DNA of 32,000 nt from Candidatus Saccharimonadota bacterium (GTDB taxonomy: Bacteria; Patescibacteriota; Saccharimonadia; Saccharimonadales; Saccharimonadaceae): the NCBI GenBank assembly GCA_017460105.1, contig JAFUBS010000005.1, positions 17,111-49,110 of the forward strand, written 5' to 3'. Positions 6,107 through 27,768 of this stretch are shown here, piece by piece. A model generated the notes under the pieces. It had not been told where the DNA came from, searched no databases, and saw nothing but the letters and a program-made list of their open reading frames with translations. The first letter of the stretch is position 1. Each line of letters begins with the position of its first letter. The translations under genes were made by a program, and so were the position numbers.

Positions 6107-6963
6107 CTAGAGCAAGCAACGCACTGAATTACCGAAGTTGCGACTGCCGCCACTATGGGGGAACACATCGGACGAATACACGCCGAGATAGTACATACTG
6201 CCGTCATTGCTCCTCGCAGAAGACCAGAAGTAGCCGCTGGAGCCCTGAACGCTGGCCGAGCCATCGTAGAAGCTGCCAGAGAGAGGCGTGGACAGGGCAG
6301 TTTTGAGGTTAGTTGCGTCACTACTATATGCTGTATATAGTGCTTGGTATTCTCCGCTGCTACCACCAGTAGGCATGCGCCAGCCTGCAGGGCAAATATC
6401 TTCTTCTGCATTACCAGATGAAGTGCCTTCACTTTTGCCATTACCGTAACAGTATGAGCCTGCGGATGCTGCGCAGTAGTTATAATAGACGCCTATCTTG
6501 CCAGAACCGGAGCCATATTTTACACTCGCCACAGTATCTTTCGTCCAACCATTACCACTAGATACTGTCATCGGAATACTATAGTAGTTTTGCGAAGAAC
6601 TAGTCCAGGCTACATTGTTGATTTTAGCCGTAGGATACTTGTCCGAAGTAGTGCCACCACCATTCTTCATGTAGTTTAGTGATGTGGCTGAAGCGTTGGT
6701 GTTGCTTGCTGTAGTGTTATTAAGAACAGTAGTATTCCCGAGGTCTAGGCGGAGGTTATCCAGCATCCAGCATTTATTATCTGCTAGTTTACCCACTAGA
6801 TAAACTTCATTATCACGAGTATCGTAGACTTGATCAGTGTCACCTACTGCTAGGCTAGAACAACCAGTCCAGTTTTGCATTGGTTGCATGACTTTACTTG
6901 TGATATTAATAGTAGCAGCACCTGCACCTACGGTGAACTCTTTGCCGTTTAGTGTACCTGCGC
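6107..6963 (-). pseudogene. C-terminal 283 codons (FISUMP domain) of a surface-protein gene disrupted by island insertion
   Basis: The track ORF 6107-6889 (260 aa) has no signal peptide. The frame stays open 23 more codons upstream (GTLNGKEFTVGAGAATINITSKV) to the TGCGC core, then hits TAA at comp. 6977-6979 inside island DNA. FISUMP pattern: DTRDNEVYLVGKLADNKCWMLDNL...GVYYNYCAASAGSYC...CPAGWRMPT...VRCLL. Confidence 0.75.
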
Positions 6964-7266
6964 GTAATCTAAATCTTTACGAACCTCTCTGTAATACAAT
7001 TGATTACATAATTTCGCATTCGGACTACCGCCCCACCTATATTCTAGTCGAAAGCAATATAATTGTCAATGAGCGAGATTTTATATATTAGGGCTATGAC
7101 AGCCAATGCATTTACGAACCAGTAATACAAAAATAAGTGAATAATGCTAAGTAGGACAACCTAACACCATCATTGTCATCGTAAAAGCTCTCTTTAGAGC
7201 TTCCATTGTCAATGTTATAATGGGAATAATACCGCTTTAAGCGCATCCCTAAGAGAAAAGGGCAAT

Positions 7267-7707
7267 ATGGTAAAAAGCCGTATCTACAAGAAGCCAAAGA
7301 ATGGCGGACCGATAGAAGTCACCGCAAGGCAACTAACCGAATTATACGAAAAACACGAAGGTATACTCACCTCGCGTCAATATAATGACTTAAAAGAAAT
7401 GGTGCTCGTCGATTCGAGCGTTCGTGATGCTAAATGGGCGCTTAGGGAGTTTGATGACGAGACTTTGCTTGGAACTTGGGACAAAGAAATGCGCTATGGC
7501 TACGGAAAACGCATTTATATTCACTTAGACCGCGAAGACGAGGATAAATATTATTTCTCTCTCGCCTATATCCCACGTGCCCTAAATAACCGCGACGTAA
7601 ACGAGGCGATTTTGCGCATGTATTTTGTCCGGCGTTGGTCGGTTGAGAAGCGCTTTTTGTGGGCGGAACCAATCGATATTACGCCGAGCTATGGTAACGA
7701 TTTTTAG
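7267..7707 (+). CDS. Hypothetical protein (146 aa), first gene inside attL
   Basis: An ORF with balanced, charged composition (MVKSRIYKKPKNGGPIEVTARQLTELYEKHEG...). An extended -10, TGTTATAAT, lies at 7213-7221. I recognise no family. Confidence 0.55.
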   Translation: MVKSRIYKKPKNGGPIEVTARQLTELYEKHEGILTSRQYNDLKEMVLVDSSVRDAKWALREFDDETLLGTWDKEMRYGYGKRIYIHLDREDEDKYYFSLAYIPRALNNRDVNEAILRMYFVRRWSVEKRFLWAEPIDITPSYGNDF

Positions 7708-7828
7708 AAAATAAAACTACAATAAGTCAATGGAGGGTATCCACTTGATCACAAACGGTGTTTCGGTCTGTTTCGTGCATAAAACAGGGGTAGAAATTTT
7801 TCTTGACGAGAAATGGTGAGATATGTTA

Positions 7829-8818
7829 TTATTTACCGTTAATTTTGGCTTCAATTTCAGCAAGTTCAGTTATCAAATCATCAAAATCTGGACGTTCACC
7901 ATAAATCATGCCTGCCATCTTTGAATAATCACGCTTTAAAGCTTCCTTGTGAATATTAGACGGAATAAGTTTGAGCGAACCGATTCTGGCTGAGTCATAC
8001 TCTGCCCATTTTCGCGGATAAAACTTAGCTTTAAAATCAGCAACTTGCTTTAGCAAATCAGATTGAGCTAGAGCCTTATCGAGCACGCCAAGTTTCGCCA
8101 TGCGATAAATGTCGTAATAATGACGCGATATTCTCGGAGGGACAGGCAAATCATCTGGGCGGTTAGCTTCGTGATGCAAGATTGTTGCCTTCTCCCAGAA
8201 AGTGCGTTCTGGTGTAGTGGTGCGGACCGAAACGGAAGCATCACTGAACTGCGCTGGATAGACCTCAGCGATATACGGTCGGATAGTGGAGGCTTCAGTG
8301 GGCGTCCAAGCCGCTTTGGCGCCGATTTCAAGCCGAATTACGTGCAGAATAGACTCATCTGCATAATCATTCCCATACCCGACGATAACCGCATCATCAT
8401 CGTAGCCGATATTGATGCCGCGATTTATAAGATTTGTAAGATCTTCCTTGAGTTTAGGAATGAATGTGGATCTTAAAAATTTCTCAGTCTTTACATCGAA
8501 TTCCTTATTTAGCGCATCCTGTTTTGTATTCGAGCGGTTCTCTAGTGGTTCTTTCGTTCCAAAACCAATCGCGCGCCAATCTAAAATTAAATCAATATCT
8601 TCGGAAAAACGCTCGATGAGATTAAAAGCCTTAGATAAACTCGTGCCGCCTTTAAAAGCAAGATTATCTTTCCACGGGCTTTTAGTAAAAAGATAGTCGA
8701 GGATAGCACAAACGAAGAGGTCTTTTTCGATAATGGCAGGACTTAAATTTTTAGCTTCAGAAACTTTTCCAATGATTATTGATAATTCATCCTTCGGAAG
8801 ATTTACTAGATCATACAT
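7829..8818 (-). CDS. abiEii: AbiEii/AbiGii-family nucleotidyltransferase toxin (type IV TA / abortive infection)
   Basis: N-terminus ...IIEKDLFVCAILDYLF...LAFKGGTSLSKAFNLIERFSEDIDLILDW carries the NTase G-S...DxD motif and layout typical of DUF1814/AbiEii. It lies 1 nt downstream of its partner gene. Confidence 0.85.
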   Translation of the reverse strand: MYDLVNLPKDELSIIIGKVSEAKNLSPAIIEKDLFVCAILDYLFTKSPWKDNLAFKGGTSLSKAFNLIERFSEDIDLILDWRAIGFGTKEPLENRSNTKQDALNKEFDVKTEKFLRSTFIPKLKEDLTNLINRGINIGYDDDAVIVGYGNDYADESILHVIRLEIGAKAAWTPTEASTIRPYIAEVYPAQFSDASVSVRTTTPERTFWEKATILHHEANRPDDLPVPPRISRHYYDIYRMAKLGVLDKALAQSDLLKQVADFKAKFYPRKWAEYDSARIGSLKLIPSNIHKEALKRDYSKMAGMIYGERPDFDDLITELAEIEAKINGK

Positions 8819-8819
8819 C

Positions 8820-9419
8820 TTAAACCTCGCAAATCTTCTTTATTACTTCGTAAATCCAATTCGTAGTAGGCTTTGCTTCGGCTAGTAGTTTCTCTTTTTC
8901 CGCAACCGAAGTTTTTCCAGCTAACTGCTCAATAATATCTTTCGAGACATGCTTAGGCCCCAAAGCCTTAATAGCCTGTATGATAAGCATTGTTTTTCTC
9001 GACATACCATTTAGTTCTCGATCTGCACGGTGGATAAAGTTGATGGAACGATTATCGATTTGATAGCTTTTCGAGTCGCCACTGCTAAGATATTCCCACT
9101 TTGCTGGAACTTGCGTTGAAAGGCCGAGTAAGTTTAAGGCCGTATTGCCGTCTGGAGCGATAGTCCAGTTATTCTTGCGTGCGATTGTCTCAGCAACAGC
9201 ATTAATGTCTGGCGCTGAATTTTCCTGTAGGATTTCAGAAAAAGCTGGTTTATCGTAAATACCGGGTAAAATTCGACGAATCTTACCTTCGCCTTCGAGA
9301 CGAGAAAAGATTTGACGAAGATTATTATCTGCTGTTATATCAGCAAAATCAGAGGTCGTGAAAACACTACCGTCTGGCATATCTATAATTCTTTTTTCAG
9401 CTAATTCGTGATTGCTCAT
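8820..9419 (-). CDS. abiEi: AbiEi-like antitoxin / transcriptional regulator (winged-HTH N-terminal domain)
   Basis: VFTTSDFADITADNNLRQIFSRLEGEGKIRRILPGIYDKP matches the AbiEi_4-type N-terminal pattern (...L.rL...G.i.ri..GiY). The gene is immediately upstream of abiEii, with AAGGAG before the ATG. Confidence 0.75.
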   Translation of the reverse strand: MSNHELAEKRIIDMPDGSVFTTSDFADITADNNLRQIFSRLEGEGKIRRILPGIYDKPAFSEILQENSAPDINAVAETIARKNNWTIAPDGNTALNLLGLSTQVPAKWEYLSSGDSKSYQIDNRSINFIHRADRELNGMSRKTMLIIQAIKALGPKHVSKDIIEQLAGKTSVAEKEKLLAEAKPTTNWIYEVIKKICEV

Positions 9420-9542: not shown

Positions 9543-10691
9543 ATGAAAATATTATTTTCATCTGACGTGTGTGAATACCAAATAAGCGGGGCTCATAATT
9601 CAAACGCTGCATTAAAAGATGAGCTAAGAAAACTGGGGCATGATGTCCGGATGCTTGTTTTATCTCCAAACGGTAAATCATATTTTAAGGATAATAATTA
9701 TTATATTGCGTCTAAGCCGATTCCGGTTTATCCGGGGGCAAGGTTTAGTTTAAAAACACATGATAAGTTGATACAAAAAATCATAGATTGGAAACCCGAT
9801 ATTGTCCATGCTCAATCAGAATTTACCACTAAAATTCTTGCAAATAAAATAATAAAAACCCTCAATATTCCATTTGTGGCAACATGCCATACATTATACG
9901 AAGATTATACTGAATATTTTTGCCCAAACAAGAAACTTGGCAAGAAAATTGTGAAAATTATGAGCAATAAAATCTATAACACTTCGGCGACGCTAATTGT
10001 CCCGTCGGAAAAGGTAAAAGCTGTAATGGAAAAATATGGTATAAAATGCCCGATAGAAATCATTCCTTCCGGTATAGATATGAATATCTATAAGAAAAGA
10101 TTGCCCAAAAAAGAAAAAACGAAAATTTTATCCGAATTAGGTTTGCAAAATTCTAATAAATATTTAGTAACAGTATGCAGATTGGCAGCAGAAAAGAATA
10201 TAGATGAGTTACTTAGGTATTTGCCAGCATTAACAAAAAGAGACAAAGACATAAAACTAATCATAGTGGGAGATGGACCATATAAAACAAAATTAGTTAA
10301 GGAAATAAATAAATTGGATATGAGTGACCATGTGATTTTTACCGGTGCGATTTTGCGAGATGAAATATACAAATATTATCAATTGGGGAATATTTTCGTA
10401 TCAGCATCAACGAGTGAGACGCAAGGGCTAACATATGTAGAGGCATTAGCATCTGGGATGCCCATGGTCTGCAAAAAAGATAAATGTCTAGATAGGATAA
10501 TAGAAAAAGGTAGCAACGGATTTGTTTTTGAAAATGAAGATGATTTTATAGAAGGTGTTGAGTCTATATTAAACAATAAGATATTGATGGATGATATGCA
10601 TAAAAATTCCTTGAAAAAATCCAATAATTTTAGCAAAGAAGAGTTTGGTATAAAAGTCGAAAGATTATATAAAAAAGTATTAGACATATAG
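9543..10691 (+). CDS. Glycosyltransferase family 4 (diacylglycerol/lipid glycosyltransferase-like)
   Basis: 382 aa with the GT-B fold pattern. The N-terminus is MKILFSSD.....GA....AALKDELRKLGHDVRMLV, and the C-terminal EX7E-type motif is SETQGLTYVEALASGMPMVC. Confidence 0.85.
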   Translation: MKILFSSDVCEYQISGAHNSNAALKDELRKLGHDVRMLVLSPNGKSYFKDNNYYIASKPIPVYPGARFSLKTHDKLIQKIIDWKPDIVHAQSEFTTKILANKIIKTLNIPFVATCHTLYEDYTEYFCPNKKLGKKIVKIMSNKIYNTSATLIVPSEKVKAVMEKYGIKCPIEIIPSGIDMNIYKKRLPKKEKTKILSELGLQNSNKYLVTVCRLAAEKNIDELLRYLPALTKRDKDIKLIIVGDGPYKTKLVKEINKLDMSDHVIFTGAILRDEIYKYYQLGNIFVSASTSETQGLTYVEALASGMPMVCKKDKCLDRIIEKGSNGFVFENEDDFIEGVESILNNKILMDDMHKNSLKKSNNFSKEEFGIKVERLYKKVLDI

Positions 10692-10712
10692 CCGTAATTT
10701 TGGCGGCGGGTA

Positions 10713-10721
10713 TGATATAAT
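10713..10721 (+). promoter_or_regulatory. Candidate extended -10 promoter (TGATATAAT) for the leader and lipid operon
   Basis: tatgatataat at 10711-10721 is identical to the 11-mers at 9502 and 26110. Confidence 0.4.
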
Positions 10722-10900
10722 AAAAATAGTTCTAGATTTCAATTTCATGGTAAGTCTACCCCTAACAAGGTAGTGTGAAATATCGAACCCTGCGTGGAGC
10801 ACTCGCTCCAGTTGGCTCGATAGCTTACTGTGAAAAATGAAGTCTAGAACACTCCATGGCGAGTGTTCCACTTGGTTATGGGGATAGTATGGAGAAAATC
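10722..10900 (+). ncRNA. Structured 5' leader (riboswitch-like or attenuator-like, class unknown) ahead of the SDR gene and operon
   Basis: This is a locally GC-richer segment within AT-rich DNA. It has a 13-bp closing helix (10729-10741 with 10838-10850, one G-U) and internal hairpins at 10755-10773 and 10781-10822, the latter including GGAGC-actc-GCTCC at 10796-10809. An 8-bp hairpin gaacactc/gagtgttc lies at 10847-10868. An alternative 12-bp pairing joins 10795-10806 to 10859-10870. These helices share nucleotides, so they cannot all form at once. Confidence 0.3.
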
Positions 10901-11899
10901 ATGAAAAAGATCTCACGTAGAGTATTAGTTACTGGCGCTTATGGATTTTTAGGTAAGTATGTTATTGCCGAATTTTTGGATAACGGATATATTGTCGTTG
11001 CTTTTGGCAGAAATAAGCAAAAAATGTCAGCTTTAAAGCAGCAATATCCGGAAATCGAATTGGCTTACGGAGATTTATGTAGTTCGTCAGATTGCTTAAA
11101 GGCTACGAAAAATATTAATATTGTCGCTCATCTCGGTGCACTTTCAACTGTGTGGGGTAAACGATCCGATTTTTTAAAAACCAATGTCGATGGTACTAAA
11201 AACATCTTGGAAGCCTGTCGTAAAAACAAAGTTAATAAACTCGTGTACATATCATCTCCCAGTATTTATGCTGGCAAATCCGATAAATTAGATATAGACG
11301 AAGATGATTATGATAGAGACAACAAATTGAACTACTATATTGAAAGTAAAATTCTAGCCGAGAAAGCTATTGAGAAATATGATGACATTAATTGGACAAT
11401 ACTTCGCCCACGAGGATTATTTGGAGTAGGTGATACAAGTATCGTTCCTAGACTAATACATGCTAACAAGAAAATAGGATTGCCTTTGTTTGGGGGCGGA
11501 AAGAACTATGTAGATATGACGTGCGTCGAAAATGTCGCATACGCAGTGAGGCTCGCAGCAGAAAGTAAAAAGTCATCACATAAGATTTATAATATCACCA
11601 ATGATGAGCCGCAAGAATTCAAAGGATTGCTGGAGGAATTATTTAAGCAACTTGGCGAAACACCAAGATACAAGAATATTAACTTAAGATTCGCCATCTC
11701 GGCCGCAACCGCCATAGAATCAATTTATAAGGTTTTTCATATTTATAAAGAGCCACCAATTACTAAATATACTATCTGCACTTTGGGCTATAGCCAGACT
11801 TTAAATATTGACAAAGCGAAGCGAGATTTGGGATATAAACCAAAGATGACATTAAGCGAAGGAATCGAGAAATATGCAACCAGCCATCAAAAGTGTTAA
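10901..11899 (+). CDS. Extended SDR, NAD-dependent epimerase/dehydratase / 3-beta-HSD family
   Basis: Rossmann motif VLVTGAYGFLGKYV and catalytic YxxxK in NYYIESKILAEK. I chose the start at 10901 because GGAG lies 6 nt upstream. The track start at 10856 falls inside the leader hairpin. Confidence 0.85.
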   Translation: MKKISRRVLVTGAYGFLGKYVIAEFLDNGYIVVAFGRNKQKMSALKQQYPEIELAYGDLCSSSDCLKATKNINIVAHLGALSTVWGKRSDFLKTNVDGTKNILEACRKNKVNKLVYISSPSIYAGKSDKLDIDEDDYDRDNKLNYYIESKILAEKAIEKYDDINWTILRPRGLFGVGDTSIVPRLIHANKKIGLPLFGGGKNYVDMTCVENVAYAVRLAAESKKSSHKIYNITNDEPQEFKGLLEELFKQLGETPRYKNINLRFAISAATAIESIYKVFHIYKEPPITKYTICTLGYSQTLNIDKAKRDLGYKPKMTLSEGIEKYATSHQKC

Positions 11900-12668
11900 G
11901 TATTTTAGTTGTGGATATTGTACAAATAACCTCGGTCGAGTTTTTAAGGGTATGCGTGGCGAAAAAAGAAAATTCCCAGCCGGAGCATTTTTGATTGAGC
12001 ACGCTAAGCATGGGCTGATTCTTTTTGATACAGGTTATTCTGCTAATATTTGTAAAACTGGTTTTGTTGGTAGAGCTTATAATTTCTTTAATCCCACATT
12101 AGTAGAAGAAAATGACGAGCTAAAGTATCAACTTAGTAAAATCGGGACTCGGCCGGAGGATATTAAGACAATCATACTGTCGCATTTGCACCCAGACCAT
12201 ATTGGTGGGCTTAGGAGTTTTGGCAAGGCGAATTTTATTGTCTCAAAAGAAACTATAAATACATACAAAAATAGAAGGATACGAGATTTAATAATGCAGC
12301 GTTTCTTTCCTGCCGATTTTGAAGATAGGGCTAACGTAATTTCAGATAAAATGATGGTAACTGAAGTTCTTGGTGCACTGAAAGGTTATGACTTGTTTAA
12401 TGACGGCAGTTTAATTTTATTAAAGCTAGGTGGTCATGCTAGCGGTCAATTGGGCGCTCTAATAGATAATAAGATTTTGTTAGCAGCAGACTCATGTTGG
12501 GGGAATGATTTAATTGATCTATCGTACCATATGAAGTTTCCCGCATCATTAATACAGGACAATATGAGAGAATATCGTAATACCCTAGATAACTTAAAGT
12601 TATTAAAGAAAAAAGGTATTAATCTGGTATTTAGTCATGATGCAAATAATAAAAAGGAGCTACTATGA
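11874..12668 (+). CDS. MBL-fold metallo-hydrolase (possible thioesterase or lactonase)
   Basis: The HxHxDH motif is in ILSHLHPDHIGGL, with later H/D ligands (GGHASGQ, AADSCW, FSHD). 264 aa. Confidence 0.8.
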   Translation: MQPAIKSVKYFSCGYCTNNLGRVFKGMRGEKRKFPAGAFLIEHAKHGLILFDTGYSANICKTGFVGRAYNFFNPTLVEENDELKYQLSKIGTRPEDIKTIILSHLHPDHIGGLRSFGKANFIVSKETINTYKNRRIRDLIMQRFFPADFEDRANVISDKMMVTEVLGALKGYDLFNDGSLILLKLGGHASGQLGALIDNKILLAADSCWGNDLIDLSYHMKFPASLIQDNMREYRNTLDNLKLLKKKGINLVFSHDANNKKELL

Positions 12669-13942
12669 ATAAAGGCTTAATTCTTAAAACATTTATTCGT
12701 GCCCGCTATTTTCACAAATTTAAAAGTCGAAGAAGGCTGGAAAAATATCAGCAAAAGCAGACAAAAAAACAACTAGATTTCTTCGAACACCATTCCCCGT
12801 ATTTCCAAAAGTTTAGTGGCAAAACTTTTGAAGAGTTGCCGTATATGAATAAAAAAGTCATGATGGATAATTTTGACAGAATGAATACAGCCGGAATATC
12901 AAAGGACGATGCCCTTAAGCTAGCTATTAATAGCGAAAAAAGCCGTGATTTTTCAGAAAAGCTGAATGGCTACTCTGTTGGGCTGTCATCTGGGACAAGT
13001 GGACACCGTGGGGTGTTTGTCCTTAGCGACATTGAGATCGCAACGTGGGTGGGCGGCATGATGGCAAAAATGCTACCGAAAGGTAAGATCTTTGGGACCA
13101 AAGTTGCGTTTTTCCTTCGGGCCGACAATAACTTATATGAGTCATCAAATAGTAAGATACTTAAATTTGAGTTTTTTGACATCTTAAAGCCAATGGAACA
13201 AAATATAATAAAATTACAGGAGTTTCAGCCGACAATTTTGGTCGCACCGCCATCTGTACTGCTCATACTAGCGGAGACTGCCAAAGTCAAGAAGCTGAGC
13301 ATTAATCCAGTAAGGATTATATCAGTTGCAGAAGTATTAACAGAAAAAGACGAACAATATTTGAAAAGGGTTTTCAAGCAAAAGATAATATACCAAGTAT
13401 ATCAATGCACCGAAGGGTTCCTTGGATACACTTGCGAGTATGGCTCCCTACATCTCAACGAGGATGTTGTAGTGGTTGAAAAGGAGTATCTTGACGACAC
13501 AAGATTTACTCCGGTTATCACGGACTTTGTTAGGACGACTCAACCTATTGTCAAATATCGATTAAACGATATTCTGGTTGAAGATAGAAGGCCATGTAAA
13601 TGCGGGACATCTATGACAAGGCTTAAAAAGATCGAAGGAAGGATGGATGATGTTTTTGAATTTGATGGCGTAAATGATAGAACGATAAAAGTATTCCCTG
13701 ATTTTATTTCCAGAGTGGTACTCTACGTGCCCAAAATAAAGAATTATAGAGTAGTACAAGAATCATCCAAAAAAGTCATTTTTTATCTAGATAATATAGA
13801 CATTGAAAATCAAAGACTAATCAAAGAAGAGTTAAAAACTCTCGCTAAGAGAATGCGTTTCAAAATGCCAGCCACTACTTTTAAGAAATATGAATCTGAT
13901 TTTAGTAAAAAGATGAAGCGAGTGGAAAGGATAAAAAAATGA
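12665..13942 (+). CDS. Adenylate-forming enzyme, F390-synthetase / PaaK / LuxE-like family
   Basis: Motif GLSSGTSGHRGVFVLS is the SSGTTG-type adenylation loop, and the size and layout are PaaK-like. AAGGAG lies upstream, and there is an ATGA overlap with the MBL gene. Confidence 0.7.
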   Translation: MNKGLILKTFIRARYFHKFKSRRRLEKYQQKQTKKQLDFFEHHSPYFQKFSGKTFEELPYMNKKVMMDNFDRMNTAGISKDDALKLAINSEKSRDFSEKLNGYSVGLSSGTSGHRGVFVLSDIEIATWVGGMMAKMLPKGKIFGTKVAFFLRADNNLYESSNSKILKFEFFDILKPMEQNIIKLQEFQPTILVAPPSVLLILAETAKVKKLSINPVRIISVAEVLTEKDEQYLKRVFKQKIIYQVYQCTEGFLGYTCEYGSLHLNEDVVVVEKEYLDDTRFTPVITDFVRTTQPIVKYRLNDILVEDRRPCKCGTSMTRLKKIEGRMDDVFEFDGVNDRTIKVFPDFISRVVLYVPKIKNYRVVQESSKKVIFYLDNIDIENQRLIKEELKTLAKRMRFKMPATTFKKYESDFSKKMKRVERIKK

Positions 13943-19130: not shown

Positions 19131-20353
19131 GACGAGTGGTAGTAACTGGGTTAGGTGCGATTACTCCTATTGGCAATAATGCAAAAGACTTCTGGAATAG
19201 CCTAAAGTCTGGCGAAGATGGCATTAGTGTCTTAGATACGGAAGAATTCGCCGAGTCGCCCGTAAAGTTAGCGGCAACTGTCAAAGATTTAGACTTATCA
19301 TCCTTGCCAAAAAGAGATACAAAATTCGATTCGAGATTTACAAATTTTGCGAGAATTGCCGGACGTGAAGCATGGAATGATTCCGGACTAGATATGGCTT
19401 TAGAAGATGCCAGGAAGGTCGGAGTTTATATTTCTACAAGCATTGGTGGACCAGAGACATTGAGTGACGGTGTTAGACAATTAGACACAAAAGGCGCAGC
19501 CAGAATTTCACCATATTTCCTACAATCAGTTTTGCCAAATACGGCCGCAGCAAAAGTATCAATAGATTTAGGTGCTAAAGGGAGTAGTATGTGCCATGTA
19601 GCGGCCTGCGCAAGTAGTGGCATATCAATAGGTGAAGCATTTCTAAAAATCAGAGATGGAGATAATAATATTTTCGTTGCTGGAGCAGCAGATGCATCTA
19701 TAACTCCACTAACCCTCGCCGGCTTCGCCGCAATGAGGGCTATATATACTGGCGAAGACAAAAAATGCGCTTCAATTCCTTTCAATAAAAAGCGTAGTGG
19801 TTTTCTGATAGGAGAGGGTGCTGGTGTTCTAGTTTTGGAAGAGTTATCTCACGCGCTAAAAAGAGAGGCTAAGATATATGCCGAGATTGTAGGATACGCT
19901 AATAATTCGGATGCTTTTAATATGGTATCACCAGACTACGAAGGTCTATCGAGCAAGGATGCTATGTTGGGTGCTATTGCCTGCGCCGAGATTAATCCTG
20001 ACAATATCGGGTATATCAATGCGCATGGCACATCTACGATATTGGGCGACAAAACTGAAGCAAAAGCCATCCGCGAGATATGGAGTAAGGAATGTCCACC
20101 CGTGTCGTCGATTAAGTCACAAATCGGGCACTTGCTTAGCGCTAGCGGTGCAGTAGAGGCCATAGCTACGATATTAATGCTGGGGAGCGGAATTATACCT
20201 GGTAGTACTTACAAGTTGGATCTAGAAGACGACTGTGTCTTGAATATCTCTGAAAAAGAGCGGTTGACCAACGCTAACTATGCTCTATCTAATTCATTTG
20301 GTTTCGGCGGCCATAATGCCTGTCTGGTATTTAAGAAATGGAGCGCGCAATGA
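19127..20353 (+). CDS. fabF: 3-oxoacyl-ACP synthase II (KAS II)
   Basis: RRVVVTGLGAITPIGN, and a catalytic Cys-His-His triad in AACASSG, NAHGTST and GHLLSASG. It ends with FGFGGHNACLVFKK. Confidence 0.9.
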   Translation: MRRVVVTGLGAITPIGNNAKDFWNSLKSGEDGISVLDTEEFAESPVKLAATVKDLDLSSLPKRDTKFDSRFTNFARIAGREAWNDSGLDMALEDARKVGVYISTSIGGPETLSDGVRQLDTKGAARISPYFLQSVLPNTAAAKVSIDLGAKGSSMCHVAACASSGISIGEAFLKIRDGDNNIFVAGAADASITPLTLAGFAAMRAIYTGEDKKCASIPFNKKRSGFLIGEGAGVLVLEELSHALKREAKIYAEIVGYANNSDAFNMVSPDYEGLSSKDAMLGAIACAEINPDNIGYINAHGTSTILGDKTEAKAIREIWSKECPPVSSIKSQIGHLLSASGAVEAIATILMLGSGIIPGSTYKLDLEDDCVLNISEKERLTNANYALSNSFGFGGHNACLVFKKWSAQ

Positions 20354-20874
20354 AAAGAATTGTTCTAGAAAGCATCAATAGCACCAATGATCATGCAGAA
20401 AAAATAGCAGACAAAACGCATGAAAATATTCTAATCATTGCAAAATCCCAAACGAATGGGCGCGGGCAGTTCGATAGGAAATGGTTTTCCGAACCAAATA
20501 AAAGTATTACTCTTAGTTTCCTGTTGAAAAACAAAAGTGGAGACAAAAAGTTAAGGAAAGATGCTTTAGAACACATACCAGTTATCATTTCTAAAAAGCT
20601 AAATGAACTATACGGCGTAAATTCCAAAGTGGTTTTACCGAATGATATCAAGATTAATAATAAAAAAGTCTGTGGTATTTTGATTGAGGCGCATTTTAAG
20701 GCAGATACACTAGAATATGTCGTAGTAGGAGTAGGGATTAATCTTAATAATGATGATTTTCCGGATGACATAAAGTCGATTGCGACATCTATCAAATTAG
20801 AGATAAAAAAAGATTCAGATGCGGACATTCTCACGGATAAATTAGAGGGGGCCATAGAGGGACTATATGACTAG
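20350..20874 (+). CDS. birA: Biotin-[acetyl-CoA-carboxylase] ligase, minimal catalytic-domain form
   Basis: GRGQFDRKW (GRGRxGRxW-type) and LPNDIKINNKKVCGILIE. There is no HTH domain and the C-terminus is very short. I chose the start at 20350 because it makes an ATGA overlap with fabF and has GGAG 6 nt upstream. The track start is 20338. Confidence 0.8.
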   Translation: MKRIVLESINSTNDHAEKIADKTHENILIIAKSQTNGRGQFDRKWFSEPNKSITLSFLLKNKSGDKKLRKDALEHIPVIISKKLNELYGVNSKVVLPNDIKINNKKVCGILIEAHFKADTLEYVVVGVGINLNNDDFPDDIKSIATSIKLEIKKDSDADILTDKLEGAIEGLYD

Positions 20875-22435
20875 GGCGAATAATTTCTCTGCGATGATTT
20901 CTGAAAGTGTCCAAAAATATGGGCAGAAAACTTTCTTTGTCGGCGAAAAGTTTTCAAAGACCTATGAGGATTTTTATAACGATATCCAAAGTTTGTCAGG
21001 TTACTTTATGGATAATAGTTTAGCCGGTAAAAAGATTGGTATTTATGCGTCTAATTCCTATAATTGGCTATTACTATTCTTTGCCGTGGCTGCTGGCGTT
21101 GGAACAATAGTGCCACTTGATAAAGAGCTGCCAGAAAAAGAGCTCGCATTATCTGCTAAGCGTATCGGTTTGGATTTTATTTTCTATGATAATTTAACGA
21201 AAGACAAAGTAAATTGTCTTCCTAAAAATATCCATGCAGAACATATAAATAAAATAGACGATATCATCAGGGAGACGCCAAATCGTAAAGCCAAAAAAGC
21301 GTCGAAACGCGAATGCGCCGCACTATTTCTAACTTCCGGCACAACGTCCAAATCCAAAATTGTTATGCTATCCGAAAAGAATCTAGTTTCCTGTGCCTAT
21401 TCTTCAGCCACCGCTTTTAAGCTAAAATCCACGGATAGGTATTATACAATTTTGCCACTCCATCATACGCTTACTCTAATGTGTGCAGTGTTGGTGCCTA
21501 TTACCAATGGATGCTCGATTTGTTTTAGCAAAAATATTAAAGACATGCAGAGAGAAATGTGCTTTTACCAGCCAACTGCACTAGTTGTGGTACCGAGGCT
21601 GCTCGAATACATTATGAATAATATAAAACTCACAGCTAAGAAAACACACAAAGAAAAGGCTCTGCAAAAACTAATTTTTATATCAAGAGGAGCGAGACTA
21701 TTACATATTGATATAAGAAAGCCCTTGTTCTCTAGTATTCACGCCAGATTTGGAGGCAAGATTCGCATGATCGCTTGTGGTGGAGCAGAGCTAGACCAAA
21801 GGGTTTTTAACTTCCTGGACGATTTAGGATTTAATATTTACCAGGGATACGGGTTGACGGAGAGCTCACCGATTTTAACCATTCGCGGAATGTTTGTAAA
21901 AAGTAAAATTGGCGTCGGTAGGCCGCTAAATGGCGTACATCTAAAAATAGCCAATCCAGATGCGGCTGGTATTGGAGAAATTATTGCCAAAGCTCCACAA
22001 GTTATGTTGGGTTATTATGATGATAAAAAAGCTACAGAAGATGTTTTAAAGAATGGTTGGCTCTACACGGGTGATTTAGGCAGGATAAGAAATGATGGTA
22101 ATCTAGAAGTAGTTGGTAGAAAGAAAAACGTCATTGTGACCAGCAACGGTAAAAACATCTATCCAGAGGAACTAGAAACACTGATTAATTATAGCAACAT
22201 AGTTAAAGAGAGTATCGTAAATGGAGTTCAAAAGAAATCCGGCTTACAAATTATCGCTACGATAGTACCAGAAGATAAAAACCGGAAAGATAAGTCTCTC
22301 GACAGCAAAATAAGTAAACTTATTAAAGATATAAATGCAGAATTACCGGATTATAAACGTATCAATAAATACATAATCAAGAAAGATGAATTCGAGAAAA
22401 CCACTACATTAAAGATAAAGAGAGGAGCAAAATGA
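20867..22435 (+). CDS. AMP-dependent acyl-CoA/acyl-ACP synthetase (FadD/Aas-like ANL enzyme)
   Basis: ANL motifs LFLTSGTTSKSKIVMLS, YQGYGLTESSP, GWLYTGDLG and ...TLKIKR. Confidence 0.85.
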   Translation: MTRANNFSAMISESVQKYGQKTFFVGEKFSKTYEDFYNDIQSLSGYFMDNSLAGKKIGIYASNSYNWLLLFFAVAAGVGTIVPLDKELPEKELALSAKRIGLDFIFYDNLTKDKVNCLPKNIHAEHINKIDDIIRETPNRKAKKASKRECAALFLTSGTTSKSKIVMLSEKNLVSCAYSSATAFKLKSTDRYYTILPLHHTLTLMCAVLVPITNGCSICFSKNIKDMQREMCFYQPTALVVVPRLLEYIMNNIKLTAKKTHKEKALQKLIFISRGARLLHIDIRKPLFSSIHARFGGKIRMIACGGAELDQRVFNFLDDLGFNIYQGYGLTESSPILTIRGMFVKSKIGVGRPLNGVHLKIANPDAAGIGEIIAKAPQVMLGYYDDKKATEDVLKNGWLYTGDLGRIRNDGNLEVVGRKKNVIVTSNGKNIYPEELETLINYSNIVKESIVNGVQKKSGLQIIATIVPEDKNRKDKSLDSKISKLIKDINAELPDYKRINKYIIKKDEFEKTTTLKIKRGAK

Positions 22436-23523
22436 ATAAACATAGGTTTGCCGTCCTCATACCAGCACGTAATGAAAGCGCAGTAATTAAGCAATTATTA
22501 GACTCACTGCATTCACAAGAGTATCCTCAAAAAGATATCGATATTTTTGTTATTGCCGATAACTGCACTGATGATACGGCGAAAATAGCCGAGCAGAACG
22601 GTGCGATAGTTTATCTACGAAAGAACAACAAGCAAATTGGAAAAGGATATGCTTTAGATTATCTACTTAATAAAATTTGGAAAAATTATCCTAATCGCAG
22701 ATACGATGCCTATATTATTTTTGATGCCGACAATCTAGTAGACAAAAATTTCATTACAGAAATCAATAAGGTTTATTCAGATGGGTACGATATAGTATCA
22801 CCATACCGAAATTCAAAAAACTATGGTTCGAGTTGGTTATCTGCAACTAGTAGTATCTACTTCTTGTATCATTCAAAATTATTTCGTCACAGATTTAATA
22901 ATGGTATTAATTGTGCGACGCTGGGAACTGGTTTCCTGATTAGCCATAACGTTATAGAAAGATATAACGGATGGAAATTCTTTACACTTGGAGAAGATGC
23001 CGAGCTTTCAATGCGTGCAGTAAAAGACGGTTTCAAAATTGGATACGCTGACGAGGCGATTATTTACGACGAGCAACCCGTCACATTTATAGATTTTTGG
23101 AGACAGAGACTACGCTGGGTTAGGGGGCACTTGCAGGTAGCCAAAATCTATGGTAATTCGCCCGCTACCACGACATTCGATCCATTAGCTATCGCGACAA
23201 TCTTAGAATTTTTATCACTATTATCCATACTAGCCATTTCTATCTTTAGCATAACTACCGCAGCAAACTTATGGCCATATATACTCCTGGCAATAACTAT
23301 GCTATATATACCAACCTTTATTATAGGGATACGTACTATAATGACCGAAAAGAGTAAAATTCATGCAAAAACCATAACAAAATACACCTATGTAATATTT
23401 TTCCCACTGATGATCCTCCTGTTTATATTTGCCGCCATCATGGCATTGTTTAGCTGTGATAGAAAAGAATGGCACAGCATAAGCCACAAAGGTAAGTATT
23501 TAAACGAGCTAGATAAAGCATGA
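22432..23523 (+). CDS. Glycosyltransferase family 2 with a C-terminal multi-pass membrane domain (processive-synthase-like)
   Basis: FAVLIPARNES...VIADNCTDDT, DxD in IFDADN, and a QxxRW-type RQRLRW. The C-terminal ~120 aa is hydrophobic (several predicted TM helices). Confidence 0.85.
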   Translation: MNKHRFAVLIPARNESAVIKQLLDSLHSQEYPQKDIDIFVIADNCTDDTAKIAEQNGAIVYLRKNNKQIGKGYALDYLLNKIWKNYPNRRYDAYIIFDADNLVDKNFITEINKVYSDGYDIVSPYRNSKNYGSSWLSATSSIYFLYHSKLFRHRFNNGINCATLGTGFLISHNVIERYNGWKFFTLGEDAELSMRAVKDGFKIGYADEAIIYDEQPVTFIDFWRQRLRWVRGHLQVAKIYGNSPATTTFDPLAIATILEFLSLLSILAISIFSITTAANLWPYILLAITMLYIPTFIIGIRTIMTEKSKIHAKTITKYTYVIFFPLMILLFIFAAIMALFSCDRKEWHSISHKGKYLNELDKA

Positions 23524-24680
23524 AAAAAATAGTCTTCTTCTCTACTCCCGCTTTTGGACATATTCTTGCAGAAGAGCCAATTATCAGTGCGTTGGTCAAG
23601 AAAGGTTATTCCGTAGACTGGTATTCGTCAAAACGTTTTAGCGGAATTATTAATAAGAGTGGCGCCAATTTTATTCCGTATAAAGCTGATTTTGATTCAT
23701 ATTACGATCTGGCCACAGTAACAAAAGATTTCTATATTTTAATGGAAACGATAATAAGTATAAGCCGCGATTGTTTTTTGGAATACAATGAAAAAATACG
23801 ACAAAAAAAGCCAGACCTGATTCTCTACGATTCAATGTGTGCCTTTGCAAAAAATATTGCCAAATCTCAAAATATTCAGTCTGTATGCTTATGTTCGACA
23901 ATGGCGTTCAATCTTTTAACATCAATTGGCACATGCTTAGCATTTCCTATTGTGAAGTTGGGGGTCACTCGTTGCTTTGATATCTTGAAAATAATTATAA
24001 CAGAACGACGATTCCGAAAACAGCATAATCTACCCCACTTAAGCCTTATCGATTTATATATTAATCGCGGAGATCTGACGTTGGTTTTGTCGCCGCGAGA
24101 ATTTCAGCCATTTGCTTGGTCCTTTCCGAAAAGTTTCAAATTTGTTGGTGCTACCGTAAAAGACAAGCACTGTATGCTCAGTCGTAACTATGGCAAATAT
24201 GATATTTATATTTCTATGGGTAGCATTTTTACAGAAAATGAAATGCTACTAAGGCGAATCTGCGACTCCGAAGAATTCAAAAATAAAAAAACGATTATTA
24301 ATGTCGGAAAATTGAAAATCAAAAACAATCATAGAAATATAAAACTTGTAGAATACACCGATCAGCTTTCATTACTAAAAAGCACCGGCCTATTTATTAA
24401 TCACGGTGGCATTGGCAGCGTCTACGATAGTATCTACATGCAGGTTCCGCAAATTTGCATACCTCAACAGGAAGAACAGCGTATGGTAGCAAAGAATGTT
24501 CATAAAAAACGGGTCGGAATTTATGTTAAGCATTTCAACCCGAAAAAAATTAATATATACATGAAAAAGCTCGAAAAAAATAGCCAGAATATTTCAAAAT
24601 ATTCTACACTATTAAGAAATACCGACGGAACGGAAAACGCCGTATCAGAAATAGAAAAAATAATCGGAAACACAAAATGA
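23520..24680 (+). CDS. Glycosyltransferase family 1, MGT/UDP-glycosyltransferase-like
   Basis: The N-terminus is KIVFFSTPAFGHI. The C-terminal nucleotide-sugar signature is FINHGGIGSVYDSIYMQVPQICIPQQEEQ. Confidence 0.75.
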   Translation: MKKIVFFSTPAFGHILAEEPIISALVKKGYSVDWYSSKRFSGIINKSGANFIPYKADFDSYYDLATVTKDFYILMETIISISRDCFLEYNEKIRQKKPDLILYDSMCAFAKNIAKSQNIQSVCLCSTMAFNLLTSIGTCLAFPIVKLGVTRCFDILKIIITERRFRKQHNLPHLSLIDLYINRGDLTLVLSPREFQPFAWSFPKSFKFVGATVKDKHCMLSRNYGKYDIYISMGSIFTENEMLLRRICDSEEFKNKKTIINVGKLKIKNNHRNIKLVEYTDQLSLLKSTGLFINHGGIGSVYDSIYMQVPQICIPQQEEQRMVAKNVHKKRVGIYVKHFNPKKINIYMKKLEKNSQNISKYSTLLRNTDGTENAVSEIEKIIGNTK

Positions 24681-25201
24681 AAATTTATTTTATAAAAACT
24701 GACAATAATGCAGAAAAACTTTCTAGTGTATTATTTCCCTTAATCTATAAGAGGGAAGCCAAAGAGAGCATCGACATCCCATATCAGCAAATCAAACGGA
24801 ATCAATATGGTAAGCCGTTGCCCATACAGGGCATTTATTACAATATTAGCCATACTAAAAAGATGTGGTGTATTGTATTTTGTGACAGTCAGTGTGGAAT
24901 CGATATTGAGAAATCGAAAGATATTGACGAACGTATTAAAAGAAGAATCTTGTCTAAAAACGAAAAAATTATAGGGGGGAATATCCTGAATAATTGGGTC
25001 ATAAAAGAAGCTTATGGCAAATATCTAGGCCTTGGTCTTAATATTGATTTTCGCGATATATCCACAAACGATATTATGGAGCATGAAAATGTCACCAATC
25101 TATCTACAAACGACTATGTTTGTTTTGTTGTTTCAAAAATACCATCCGATATTGAAGTGACTTATTTAAAAGAAGAGGATTTAGTCAAAGCTGGTTGTTG
25201 A
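24677..25201 (+). CDS. 4'-phosphopantetheinyl transferase, Sfp-type (short)
   Basis: QYGKPL, NISHT, CGIDIEK and WVIKEAYGKYLGLG are the PPTase motifs. 174 aa. It is the last gene of the overlapping chain. Confidence 0.8.
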   Translation: MKIYFIKTDNNAEKLSSVLFPLIYKREAKESIDIPYQQIKRNQYGKPLPIQGIYYNISHTKKMWCIVFCDSQCGIDIEKSKDIDERIKRRILSKNEKIIGGNILNNWVIKEAYGKYLGLGLNIDFRDISTNDIMEHENVTNLSTNDYVCFVVSKIPSDIEVTYLKEEDLVKAGC

Positions 25202-25367
25202 TAAAAGCATTCAATGCTTCTCTGATCCCACATTCTGGGCAAATCTTGGTTTTGTTGTCTTTGCGCGATAGCGCAGGGTAATCTAAATAATATTTTCCGC
25301 ATTTAGGGCATTTGCGGCGCTTCTGAGCGGCTTTTGAGCTAGAGTAGGGCGTTTTACTGTATTTCAT
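25185..25367 (-). CDS. Small zinc-ribbon protein (60 aa)
   Basis: Two CxxC pairs (CPKCG...CPECG) and a basic N-terminus. It has an ATGA overlap with the upstream 99-aa ORF, and it overlaps the PPTase 3' end by 17 nt in convergent orientation. Confidence 0.55.
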   Translation of the reverse strand: MKYSKTPYSSSKAAQKRRKCPKCGKYYLDYPALSRKDNKTKICPECGIREALNAFINNQL

Positions 25368-25663
25368 AAATCCACCGAGCAGACACGCGTTAAACCGAAT
25401 TTATACCCTAATTCCTCCCACATATTATCGGGCGCATCCTCTCCTAAGACTCGCCAGACCGGGTAATTATAATCAAGCATAATTTTTGCAACATCTTTTG
25501 GATCCACCATTAGTTGGCAATAGTAGCCAGCCGTAGTTTCACCTTCAATTATGATTGGTTCACTTTCTTCGGCCTTCAATACTTCTTCCAAGCGTTTATA
25601 TTCGACCGCAATAGCTTCATTTACGAGCTTAACGGCAGCGACTAATTTATCATCTTTTTTCAT
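25364..25663 (-). CDS. Hypothetical protein (99 aa)
   Basis: An acidic ORF translationally coupled to the zinc-ribbon gene. I recognise no family. Confidence 0.5.
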   Translation of the reverse strand: MKKDDKLVAAVKLVNEAIAVEYKRLEEVLKAEESEPIIIEGETTAGYYCQLMVDPKDVAKIMLDYNYPVWRVLGEDAPDNMWEELGYKFGLTRVCSVDL

Positions 25664-25879: not shown

Positions 25880-26020
25880 ATGGATGAAGATAAAGAAACG
25901 TCCACAACTATCGCCAGCCTGTTTAATGTTCTAAAAAACATTAAAGTTACGCCAGGACGCATAGCACAAAATCAATGGAAATCGGTGGGCAAAAATGGCG
26001 AAGTTGAATTTTACTACTAA
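25880..26020 (+). CDS. Small ORF (46 aa), below the ORF-track cutoff, upstream of the recombinase
   Basis: The ATG is preceded by AAGGAG 7 nt upstream. The product is MDEDKETSTTIASLFNVLKNIKVTPGRIAQNQWKSVGKNGEVEFYY, and a good intrinsic terminator follows. Confidence 0.4.
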   Translation: MDEDKETSTTIASLFNVLKNIKVTPGRIAQNQWKSVGKNGEVEFYY

Positions 26021-26111: not shown

Positions 26112-26120
26112 TGATATAAT
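26112..26120 (+). promoter_or_regulatory. Candidate extended -10 promoter (TGATATAAT) 7 nt upstream of the recombinase ATG (leaderless)
   Basis: tatgatataat at 26110-26120. Only aaaatca precedes the ATG at 26128, and there is no SD. Confidence 0.45.
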
Positions 26121-26127
26121 AAAATCA

Positions 26128-27558
26128 ATGAAAAGCAAATCAATTGCGGCAATAAAAACCGATACGGGCGAGCAACCCTTGCTTCGCTATGTCCTTTATG
26201 CACGCAAGTCATCCGAAGATGTCGGCGCACAAGCTAAATCTCTTCCCGATCAGATTAAAGATTGCTTAGCTTACGCAGAAACTCACGGCTTGGTCGTTGT
26301 GGATATTTTAAAAGAATCCCATTCGGCTAAAATCTCCGGGCGCCGACCGATATTCTCTAAAATGTTAAAAGACCTTGAAGCCGGTAAATATGACGGAATC
26401 CTAACCTGGCACCCAGACCGCTTAGCACGTAACTCATTAGAAGCTGGGATGATTGTTGATATGGTCGATAACGGTGTAATCAAAGACTTAAAATTCCCGA
26501 TGTTTAACTTTACAAATGATTCAAACGCAAAGTTGCTCCTTAATATCGTTTTCGCAATGTCTAAGCAATATTCAGAACATCTTTCCGAAAGCGTCCAGCG
26601 TGGCGTAAATTCTAACCTTGCCCAAGGAAAATCTGGCGGCATGCCAAAATGGGGGTATAACCGCGATGAAGTAACAGGGTTCTATAAACCAGACCAGAAT
26701 TTCGACATCATCAGGCGAGGATTCGACATGTACCTTGGAGGTTATAGTCAAAGAGATATTATTGATTTCTGGCGGCAAAACGATGTTCATCGTATGACGA
26801 AAATTAATCGTAAAAACAAAAATAAACGAAAAATTACCGTATATAACAGCGTCTCGGTTCTTGGCACGATCTTAAGTGATCCATTTTATTATGGTATTCT
26901 TGTCCAGGGTGGGCAGAAGGTAGATCTACGTGAAATATTACCAGATTTCAAGCCAATGATTACCGAAGAAGAATTCGGACTGATTCAGGCAAAACGTAGA
27001 AATCTCAAAAAGGTCGTTTCAGCTTCCGTAAAGGCCGAAGAGGGTAAGATATTCATCCCGTTCCGCCAAATGGTAAAATGTGGCGAATGTGGCAATTTTA
27101 TGCACGTAGCACGCTCGAAATCACGCACTGGCAAGAAATATCTCTATTTCCGTTGTGGAAATCCAGAATGTACGCGTAAGCAGAAAAACGTACGTGCGCA
27201 AGTAGTTCTAGACGCACTCTATAAAACGCTAGACAGTCTACATTTTACGAAGAGAAACATTACGAAGATTCAAAACAGCTTAACGGATTATATCAATGTC
27301 CGCCATAACGAGCTTATTGAGGAAAAGCTCCGCGTTAATGCCGCTATCAAAGCTAAGAAACGCCGTCAGGATGAATTAGCCCAAGCTTTTATAGACCTCG
27401 GCAAAGACGCGCCAAGAGAAGCGAAGCAGATGGTAAACGAGCAGCTTGAGGAATGCCGGAACGATATAGCGACTTTGCAAACCGAGCGCGATGAAATTGA
27501 CGCTAAAATCTTCGATCCAGACCAGGTTCGCGAAATTTTGGATGAGCTTACGAACTAG
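26128..27558 (+). CDS. Large serine recombinase (integrase), terminated prematurely by an in-frame TAG
   Basis: Resolvase-type catalytic domain YVLYARKSSEDVG...HPDRLARN, then a recombinase domain, a zinc ribbon CGECGNFMHV...YFRCGNPEC and a long coiled-coil. TAG is at 27556-27558. Confidence 0.9.
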   Translation: MKSKSIAAIKTDTGEQPLLRYVLYARKSSEDVGAQAKSLPDQIKDCLAYAETHGLVVVDILKESHSAKISGRRPIFSKMLKDLEAGKYDGILTWHPDRLARNSLEAGMIVDMVDNGVIKDLKFPMFNFTNDSNAKLLLNIVFAMSKQYSEHLSESVQRGVNSNLAQGKSGGMPKWGYNRDEVTGFYKPDQNFDIIRRGFDMYLGGYSQRDIIDFWRQNDVHRMTKINRKNKNKRKITVYNSVSVLGTILSDPFYYGILVQGGQKVDLREILPDFKPMITEEEFGLIQAKRRNLKKVVSASVKAEEGKIFIPFRQMVKCGECGNFMHVARSKSRTGKKYLYFRCGNPECTRKQKNVRAQVVLDALYKTLDSLHFTKRNITKIQNSLTDYINVRHNELIEEKLRVNAAIKAKKRRQDELAQAFIDLGKDAPREAKQMVNEQLEECRNDIATLQTERDEIDAKIFDPDQVREILDELTN

Positions 27559-27768
27559 CTAGATTCCATCGGCGAAAAGATGAAATCTGCCGATTCTTGG
27601 CAAAAAGACCAGTTAGTCCGAAATATGCTTACGAACCTAGAAATCAACAACAAAAATGAGGTCTCTTTCAGATGGAAGAAACCTCTAAAGCATATATTCA
27701 ACAATGCTTTGACCGAAGAATTTCGGTCTGGTGCGCCAGAAGTCTTGGTAACAGTATTTGTTGCATAA
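27559..27768 (+). other. In-frame continuation of the recombinase reading frame after the TAG (69 codons); crosses the attR core into flanking DNA
   Basis: The frame is the same as 26128. The translation LDSIGEKMKSADSWQKDQLVRNMLTNLEINNKNEVSFRWKKPLKHIFNNALTEEFRSGA|PEVLVTVFVA looks like genuine protein sequence up to the core, not junk. Confidence 0.5.

Follow-up and report, generated by a model that had tools for sequence, protein, structure and literature searches.

The window analyzed here is a stretch of 32,000 nucleotides (contig JAFUBS010000005.1, positions 17111-49110 of the forward strand; assembly GCA_017460105.1) from a metagenome-assembled genome (MAG) of a ruminant-gut Candidatus Saccharibacteria, and all statements about the host genome refer to this 32-kb window. 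It contains a surface-protein gene, hereafter the adhesin gene, that is interrupted by an island of about 20.8 kb (positions 6964-27736). The GC content of the island is 0.34-0.42, that of its flanks 0.45-0.55, and no capsid, replication or conjugation genes were found among the island genes. The left junction reads gtgtacc-TGCGC-gtaatc (attL core, 6959-6963) and the right junction reads ggtctgg-TGCGC-cagaag (attR core, 27732-27736). A gene encoding a large serine recombinase (LSR) is located next to the right junction. In silico removal of 6964-27736 leads to a single open reading frame (ORF) of 897 aa on the minus strand, with its start at 29573 and its stop at 6107. It joins 614 and 283 codons and reads ...VTKTSGAGTLNGKEFTVGAGAATINITSK... 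over the join (a longer stretch is ...TKTSGAGTLNGKEF...).

The C-terminal fragment of the adhesin gene (6107-6963, minus strand; 283 codons and a stop) is of the FISUMP/TIGR02145 type, has a weak Pfam match to PF09603 and lacks a start codon and a signal peptide; unjoined, it meets a stop five codons inside the island. The N-terminal fragment (27732-29573, minus strand; 614 codons) includes a signal/transmembrane segment, an N-domain and InlB-B-type repeats. Unjoined, it forms an ORF of 672 aa, in which the 614 real codons are followed, up to position 27555, by 58 island codons antisense to the LSR gene. This ORF corresponds to the protein MBQ8156570.1 (P0001, IJ101_02165; 672 aa), located on a 64-kb contig and annotated, like others, as Candidatus Saccharibacteria. 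An earlier sequence-only reading of the window had given the same codon counts and ends for both halves, along with their exact in-frame fusion to 897 aa, and all of this was reproduced.

The fused protein was aligned with the uninterrupted 904-aa ortholog P0375 (MBR3254087.1) in one high-scoring segment pair by BLASTP, with 89% identity over 902 columns, the C-terminal fragment being collinear with residues 620-904. The intact proteins P0002 and P0003 showed 70% and 67% identity to it at 100% coverage, and P0002 shares KTSGAGTLNGKEF with the fused protein. The split gene thus has uninterrupted orthologs and homologs (P0375, P0002, P0003). At the DNA level, the predicted attB was aligned without gaps over the junction with the intact homolog in locus L001 (85%). 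The earlier claim that the two halves belong to one split gene therefore holds, and the possibility of two independently truncated genes was ruled out by the single-segment alignment. The 5-bp repeat by itself is not significant, since TGCGC occurs 25 times in the window versus about 16 expected. The observation was taken as real because of this collinearity, the ungapped attB alignment and the fact that other copies of the island end at the same bases. The surface-protein family is very large and paralogous in Saccharibacteria (479 matches at E <= 1e-10), with at least one further paralog within the window (1111-3273).

The island recurs in at least eight further copies, which show 98.1-99.6% nucleotide identity and lie in at least three other host flanks. 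Homology to the window starts exactly at position 6959 in L050, L051, L053-L056, L058, L059 and L042 and ends exactly at 27736 in L008, so the boundaries and TGCGC cores proposed from the sequence alone are right to the base. Region 6964-27736 is an integrative genomic island, and its family is common in animal-gut Saccharibacteria. The insertion into the adhesin gene was found only in contigs that are 100% identical to the window (the NCBI contig, an ENA scaffold and a Logan contig derived from run SRR12529347), so it represents one population (sample SAMN15829971) and not independent occurrences.

The LSR gene (26128-27558, plus strand) was correctly placed beside the right junction by the sequence-only reading; it ends 178 bp from this junction and comprises 476 codons followed by an in-frame TAG (27556-27558). 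Its product contains the Pfam domains Resolvase (PF00239, 9.7e-21), Recombinase (PF07508, DBD1) and Zn_ribbon_recom (PF13408). In an alignment of 55 sequences, the catalytic residues S28, R73, D97 and R98 and the zinc-ribbon residues C318, C321, C343 and C348 are invariant. The protein aligns to residues 53-496 of the SPbeta integrase, the nearest solved structure by sequence. Its homologs are 532-594 aa long, compared with 476 aa in the window: codon 477, which is TAG here, encodes Gln (CAG) in near-identical copies. The conceptual read-through protein is identical in 507 of 530 residues to P0367, which is integrated at tRNA-Leu and has Gln at position 477. The rest of the ancestral frame (27559-27736, plus strand) reads LDSIGEKMKS...FRWKKPL...EEFRSGA up to the crossover, and the integrated form with TAG changed to CAG ends ...RSGAPEVLVTVFVA. 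These genomes do read TAG as a stop, because TAG and TAA interchange at a conserved stop of the same family, that of the LSR extension described below. An identical 476-aa product was called in the NCBI, ENA and Logan assemblies.

Modeling with AlphaFold (P0121 with 55 homologs; mean predicted local distance difference test score, pLDDT, 78.6) predicted a coiled coil at residues 375-458, with long helices at 375-424 and 430-458. It is followed by helices 478-487 and 490-500, a hairpin at 501-516 and a helix at 520-527 (pLDDT 83-86). All of these later elements lie past the stop in the window, as do the invariant residues D494 and R498 (same alignment). In the SPbeta integrase, the coiled coil returns to DBD2 at N479/N480 (PMC11722253). 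The DBD2 of the window LSR is incomplete, the conserved segment after the coiled coil being removed by the stop at 477, and both the model and the alignment suggest that the truncated enzyme is defective.

A scan of GTDB species representatives for related LSRs revealed 34 loci, 30 of which could be evaluated for a tRNA target. Every locus with at least 40% LSR identity comes from a Saccharibacteria/Nanosyncoccus MAG, and ruminant guts are the main source. Of the 30 evaluable loci, 26 have a tRNA gene on the other strand whose 3' end lies 164-189 nt past the equivalent of residue 476; the targeted tRNAs are those for Leu, Lys, Glu, Gln and Val. All of the closest LSRs (93-95% identity; loci L007, L008, L017, L031 and L036, proteins P0362, P0363, P0367, P0368 and P0372) read into tRNA-Leu, and L008 is the same island with the same lipid cargo, located in tRNA-Leu(GAG). 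The tRNA-Leu target of the clade of the window LSR is ...GCGCACCA.

The right end of the island always reads ...TCGGTC-TGGTG[A/C]GC, where TGGTG is the complement of the tRNA CACCA end. The displaced copy of the core is present at the left junction as TGGTGCGC in L017, L036, L042 and L050-L059, and TGGTGAGC is present at both ends of L003 as an 8-bp direct repeat. The attP site reads ...GACCGAAGAATTTCGGTC-TGGTGCGC-GTAATC..., and the attP-derived 8-mer TGGTGCGC is located in the window at 27729-27736. The identity between attP and attB is 5 bp in the window (TGCGC), 6 bp in L004 (TGGTGA) and 8 bp in L003, L017 and L050-L059. The overlap between the identities in L004 and in the window places the crossover within T-G-[A/C] of the 8-mer. 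The adhesin site (...GTGTACC-TGCGC-CAGAAG...) shares five of the eight core bases. The window copy is not at a tRNA gene: the only tRNA gene in the window is that for tRNA-Asp (29718-29794), away from both junctions. Other non-tRNA junctions were seen in L011, L035, L037 and L049; they are decayed remnants or ambiguous, and none is in an adhesin gene.

Several further features of the att regions were observed. Fragments of tRNA-Leu and a remnant of the LSR 3' end are present near or inside islands (L017 ~2720-2775 and ~4950-5009; L018 5857-5935; L042 2640-2694), which indicates that islands entered the same tRNA gene repeatedly or in tandem and that the older elements decayed. A 7-bp inverted repeat, GACCGAA-GAAT-TTCGGTC (27711-27728), abuts the CCA-complement; its counterpart in L003 (~11584-11601) and L004 is GACCGAG-AAAT-CTCGGTC, and the change relative to the window is compensatory. 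On the tRNA-sense strand, this repeat is a hairpin located directly after the restored CCA end. Its sequence and position would suit either a dyad bound by the recombinase or a structure in the tRNA 3' trailer. A simple ungapped test of dyad symmetry on the reconstructed attP gave a weak result (6-10 of 24).

All these characteristics allow us to propose the following course of events. The LSR normally recombines attP, which lies in the 3' part of its own ORF, with the very 3' end of a tRNA gene, and the island supplies a replacement CCA end to the tRNA. In the window, the island recombined instead at a non-tRNA secondary site within a paralogous surface-protein gene, the shared TGCGC representing micro-identity around a 2-bp crossover. 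The gene was cut cleanly into pieces of 614 and 283 codons, since the serine-recombinase reaction is conservative, and one of many adhesin paralogs would thereby have been inactivated. The insertion is probably fixed, because the nonsense codon 477 removes a conserved part of DBD2 and because the C-terminal 42 residues of the LSR are encoded 20 kb away. Thus, with considerable confidence, we consider that an island of a tRNA-targeting family has inserted off-target at a non-tRNA site, knocking out one adhesin paralog, and is now probably fixed in place. The insertion appears to have been accidental and not selected. With this, an island family is defined at nucleotide resolution in Saccharibacteria, whose genomes are tiny and whose routes of gene gain are poorly known.

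Some points weigh against this interpretation. Outside the core, the adhesin site matches the tRNA-Leu attB at about 5 of 18 positions, which is chance level (compared by eye) and leaves no room for a tRNA-like pseudo-site as the explanation for the adhesin attB. Despite its truncation, the LSR still has its catalytic domain, DBD1, zinc ribbon and coiled coil, and, judged by this domain content, residual activity is possible. In addition, two LSR loci of the family (L011 and L033) are present in one MAG, and a related LSR could act in trans.

These last points bear on the best surviving alternative, namely that the island is an ordinary, recent and still mobile passenger, which can leave by means of a trans-acting LSR or through a subpopulation with an intact LSR, its excision having no regulatory role. 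Recent mobility is implied by the 98-99.6% identical copies in several host contexts, apart from the LSR, no backbone gene is truncated, and some MAGs carry two LSRs of the family. However, the truncated 476-aa LSR was called in all three assemblies of the population, and departure in trans needs cross-reactivity of another LSR on these att sites, which is a supposition. We regard this alternative as rather improbable.

The sequence-only reading had favored a programmed and reversible excision comparable to the skin/sigK, fdxN and comK systems, in which regulated LSR-mediated loss of the island rebuilds the adhesin and serves as an on/off surface switch. Such a switch would have represented a type of gene regulation new to bacteria of the candidate phyla radiation (CPR). 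Precise deletion does restore an 897-aa ORF collinear with intact orthologs, the island does encode an LSR, and LSR recombination is conservative; surface proteins are also typical targets of phase variation. However, this pairing of island and gene does not recur: the other island copies and the relatives of the island are located at tRNA genes or in other flanks, tRNA genes being the normal target of the family; the adhesin insertion is confined to one population; the orthologs of the gene are uninterrupted; and the LSR carries the nonsense codon at 477. The empty site and the circular junction, which that reading predicted, were searched for in IMG/VR, JGI metagenomes and a protein collection, and neither was found: the attP pattern CGGYCTGGTGMGCGNNNNCYAAAYCTYTACGAACC matched nothing in either IMG/VR or the JGI metagenomes, and the exact fused 897-aa protein, used as a proxy for the empty site, is absent from a collection of 15 billion proteins. 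No recognizable directionality factor was revealed by homology (Pfam, PHROGs). A switch of this kind was therefore judged very unlikely. Finally, a chimeric contig joining island DNA to two unrelated gene fragments can be practically dismissed: the source is a MAG and the island differs from its flanks in GC content, but the NCBI MAG contig, ENA scaffold and Logan contig give an identical left junction, both junctions lie exactly at the att core of the island family, and joining the flanks yields one gene without the loss or gain of a single base.

Three features went unnoticed in the sequence-only reading: the tRNA as the usual target of the island, the lipid biosynthesis cargo and the original course of the recombinase ORF through the junction. 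Besides the off-target insertion, the position of attP relative to the recombinase gene deserves separate consideration. When the island ends were joined in silico, the LSR ORF continued for 42 codons in frame into the left end. This detached 3' segment (6963-7091, plus strand) comprises 42 codons and a TAG, encodes RNLNLYEPLCNTIDYIISHSDYRPTYILVESNIIVNERDFIY and is in frame with the LSR only at attP. The extension, its stop codon always in an identical position, is kept in seven islands (the window, L003, L004, L010, L016, L017 and L036). It contains no in-frame ATG, GTG or TTG start, and the differences among the islands are mostly in the third position (for the window and L003, for example, 10/6/21 by codon position). 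The continuation of the LSR ORF is located elsewhere at 1634-1762 in L003, at 1476-1604 in L004, at 2776-2904 in L017, from 4893 in L022 and from 5935 in L018. With the ends joined, the LSR ORFs of the window, L003, L004, L018, L022, L024 and L025 continue for 42-52 codons in frame. LSR subfamilies that are only about 50% identical carry a homologous module (...PELIYCIVDWWFLHPNYEFKPK...YPRIEEFIY followed by a stop, in L022, L024 and L025), and a related C-terminal module is present in L018, L020 and L021. The module is family-wide, its stop position is conserved, and it carries a signature of purifying selection.

In every integrated copy, the module is replaced by tRNA- or host-derived residues, and AlphaFold predicts disorder there (pLDDT < 50 at 529-540). 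Integration splits the LSR gene, and so the C-terminus of the recombinase changes with integration. A phmmer search with the 42-aa extension against 1.84 billion representative sequences gave 7 matches, all of them at the C-termini of run-in ORFs of 58-139 aa, which represent integrated junctions; a full-length LSR with the extension was not among these 7, and the result is uninformative about the circular form, because clustering at 50% would hide it. In work on SPbeta, the C-terminal residue F532 was reported to affect directionality (PMC11722253), which makes a role of the module in integration versus excision plausible. A literature search for attP inside a serine-integrase ORF returned nothing relevant.

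Taken together, these data allow a broader and clearly more tentative proposal, which we consider possible. Islands with LSRs directed at tRNA 3' ends may be spread across Saccharibacteria, the recombinase gene being split by its own integration, so that two isoforms would exist depending on the integration state and the conserved C-terminal module would be present only in the circle. This may provide control of directionality or commitment, as a counterpart of the archaeal 'suicidal' integrases, and the same vehicle may spread a glycolipid pathway based on acetyl-CoA carboxylase (ACC), acyl carrier protein (ACP) and ketosynthase. The arrangement of attP within the ORF is a natural test of the effect of the serine-integrase C-terminus on directionality, relevant to the integrases used in genome engineering.

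The conserved backbone of the family comprises a gene of 146 aa and an AbiEii/AbiEi pair at the left end, and three small ORFs and the LSR at the right end, with variable cargo between them. The 146-aa backbone gene (7267-7707, plus strand), whose function is unassigned, has no Pfam or PHROG match; it is present in L003, L004, L010, L017 and others, and an identical protein was found on at least 20 contigs. Next to it, on the minus strand, the AbiEii toxin (7829-8818; PF08843, 5.8e-40) and a DUF6088/AbiEi-like antitoxin (8820-9419; PF19570, 1.9e-29) are encoded. This pair also occurs in L004, L005, L042 and L050-L059 and, as a toxin-antitoxin or abortive-infection system, likely stabilizes the island. 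The right-end ORFs encode a Zn-ribbon protein of 60 aa (25185-25367, minus strand), a 99-aa protein (25364-25663, minus strand) and, directly upstream of the LSR, a 46-aa protein (25880-26020, plus strand). They are kept in up to 14 related loci and are possibly regulators or a directionality factor. The small backbone ORFs were compared with Pfam and PHROGs, which gave no usable family match and no recognizable directionality factor.

Two short motifs in the left arm are candidate protein-binding or regulatory sites: TTTACGAACC, which occurs twice (6976-6985 and 7111-7120) and is kept in all islands examined, and the palindrome AAAGCTCTCTTTAGAGCTT (7184-7202), upstream of the 146-aa gene, which is also present in L003, L016 and L017. 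Sister islands differ in cargo. L003 (1-9500) carries genes for DNA methyltransferases, a PD-(D/E)XK protein, a MazE-like antitoxin and an ABC transporter. L004 (2100-9600) carries a reverse transcriptase with a helix-turn-helix (HTH) protein and proteins of 551, 325 and 322 aa with unassigned functions. The same backbone with differing cargo indicates that the family acts as a general shuttle for cargo and defence.

In the window, the cargo is a lipid/glycolipid cluster of 16 genes (9543-25201, plus strand; Pfam and NCBIfam). The first five genes encode, in order, a GT4 glycosyltransferase, an OleD-like short-chain dehydrogenase/reductase (SDR), a hydrolase of the metallo-beta-lactamase fold (lactonase-like), a TIGR02304 adenylating enzyme related to F390 synthetase, and beta-ketoacyl-ACP synthase III (KAS III). 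They are followed by ACP (14873-15109), whose ORF carries the DSL motif, biotin carboxyl carrier protein, biotin carboxylase, a fused carboxyltransferase beta+alpha and malonyl-CoA:ACP transacylase (FabD). The last six genes encode a FabF-type ketosynthase, a biotin ligase, an acyl-CoA ligase, a GT2 glycosyltransferase, a glycosyltransferase of the GT28/MGT family and a phosphopantetheinyl transferase. The cargo therefore includes a complete biotin-dependent carboxylase together with a dedicated biotin ligase, two adenylating enzymes and three glycosyltransferases.

A FabG-type ketoreductase, a dehydratase and an enoyl reductase were not found in the island using Pfam and NCBIfam, so the cargo is not a complete type II fatty-acid synthesis system. 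The sole reductase is the extended SDR, which is most like OleD but falls below the curated cut-off. With low confidence, the cluster can be assumed to encode an ACP-dependent condensation pathway leading to a glycosylated beta-keto/beta-hydroxy or branched acyl product.

This cluster shares its core with other contigs: the island backbone accompanies the core in L008, L042 and L050-L059 but not in L043, where the core lies beside Fur/ZnuABC; the core is also present in GCA_016648615.1. Some copies have alternative tailoring genes, and the cargo of L008 is 97-99% identical to that of the window at the amino acid level. The biotin carboxylase belongs to a distinct clade of 418-422-aa proteins (seventeen clusters at 56-95% identity); its next relatives are at about 50%, one of them annotated as Bacilli, and at about 46%, including Clostridia AccC. 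A literature search for ACC genes in Saccharibacteria, for the cargo cluster and for LSR islands in Saccharibacteria returned nothing relevant. Fatty-acid and membrane-lipid synthesis is reportedly missing in CPR bacteria, Saccharibacteria among them (PMC10939385, PMC12455944). An island that moves a malonyl-CoA/ACP-based lipid and glycosylation pathway among Saccharibacteria bears on the lipid source of these epibionts.

Some observations were made in the neighborhood of the adhesin genes. The tRNA-Asp(GTC) gene (29718-29794) lies directly upstream of the start of the split gene and is not used for integration. An HTH-Fic/DOC gene (5088-6005) adjoins the window adhesin gene, and a Fic/RhuM-type gene is located near the intact homolog in L001 (3922-4905). 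A reverse-transcriptase gene was found two genes downstream of the intact homolog P0002 (L001, 9244-11431). A diversity-generating retroelement was considered there and dropped, since a search for direct repeats of at least 40 nt (template/variable) found none.

In general organization, the locus resembles the skin element of Bacillus subtilis (sigK, SpoIVCA), SPbeta (spsM, SprA and SprB), the Anabaena fdxN element (XisF) and the Listeria comK prophage: an LSR element of tens of kb lies inside an ORF that would be restored precisely by conservative recombination at a short core. Unlike in these systems, there is no conserved partnership between the element and the interrupted gene, the family normally integrates at tRNA 3' ends, the LSR of the window is truncated, the host is a non-sporulating CPR bacterium, and a directionality factor and excision products were not found in the searches made.

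SCCmec/ccr and Tn4451/TnpX are non-conjugative cargo cassettes that are moved by LSRs via a circular intermediate, like the island described here. The target of SCC, unlike that of the island, is the 3' end of rlmH. Circularization of Tn4451 alters the expression of its recombinase, because the joint creates the tnpX promoter; state dependence thus lies at a promoter in Tn4451, whereas here it would lie in the coding sequence of the C-terminus. Pseudo-sites of serine integrases, such as the phiC31 pseudo-att sites, match the cognate attB mainly at the crossover core, as does the adhesin site. In contrast to phiC31 pseudo-att sites, the present case is a natural event in a native host lineage, and a coding gene is interrupted.

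The family is also similar to Islander-type islands and the tycheposons of Prochlorococcus (bioRxiv 10.1101/2020.12.28.424599), which are cargo islands without transfer genes in streamlined genomes. In common with them, it integrates at tRNA 3' ends, restores the tRNA end, carries variable adaptive or defence cargo and leaves behind tRNA fragments and tandem remnants (here in L017, L018 and L042). Tyrosine integrases are used by 910 of 937 tycheposons (bioRxiv 10.1101/2020.12.28.424599), whereas integration in this family relies on an LSR and on att sites identical over only 5-8 bp, and the window copy lies away from any tRNA gene.

The closest parallel to the split recombinase gene is provided by the SSV1-type 'suicidal' integrases of archaeal viruses and plasmids, in which the att site is inside the integrase ORF and mimics a tRNA segment, and integration partitions the gene (PMC8371274). 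According to the same review, such self-splitting integrases are tyrosine recombinases and occur exclusively in Archaea (PMC8371274). Here, by contrast, a bacterial serine recombinase loses only a conserved C-terminal module of 42-50 aa, which leaves the canonical LSR fold undivided.

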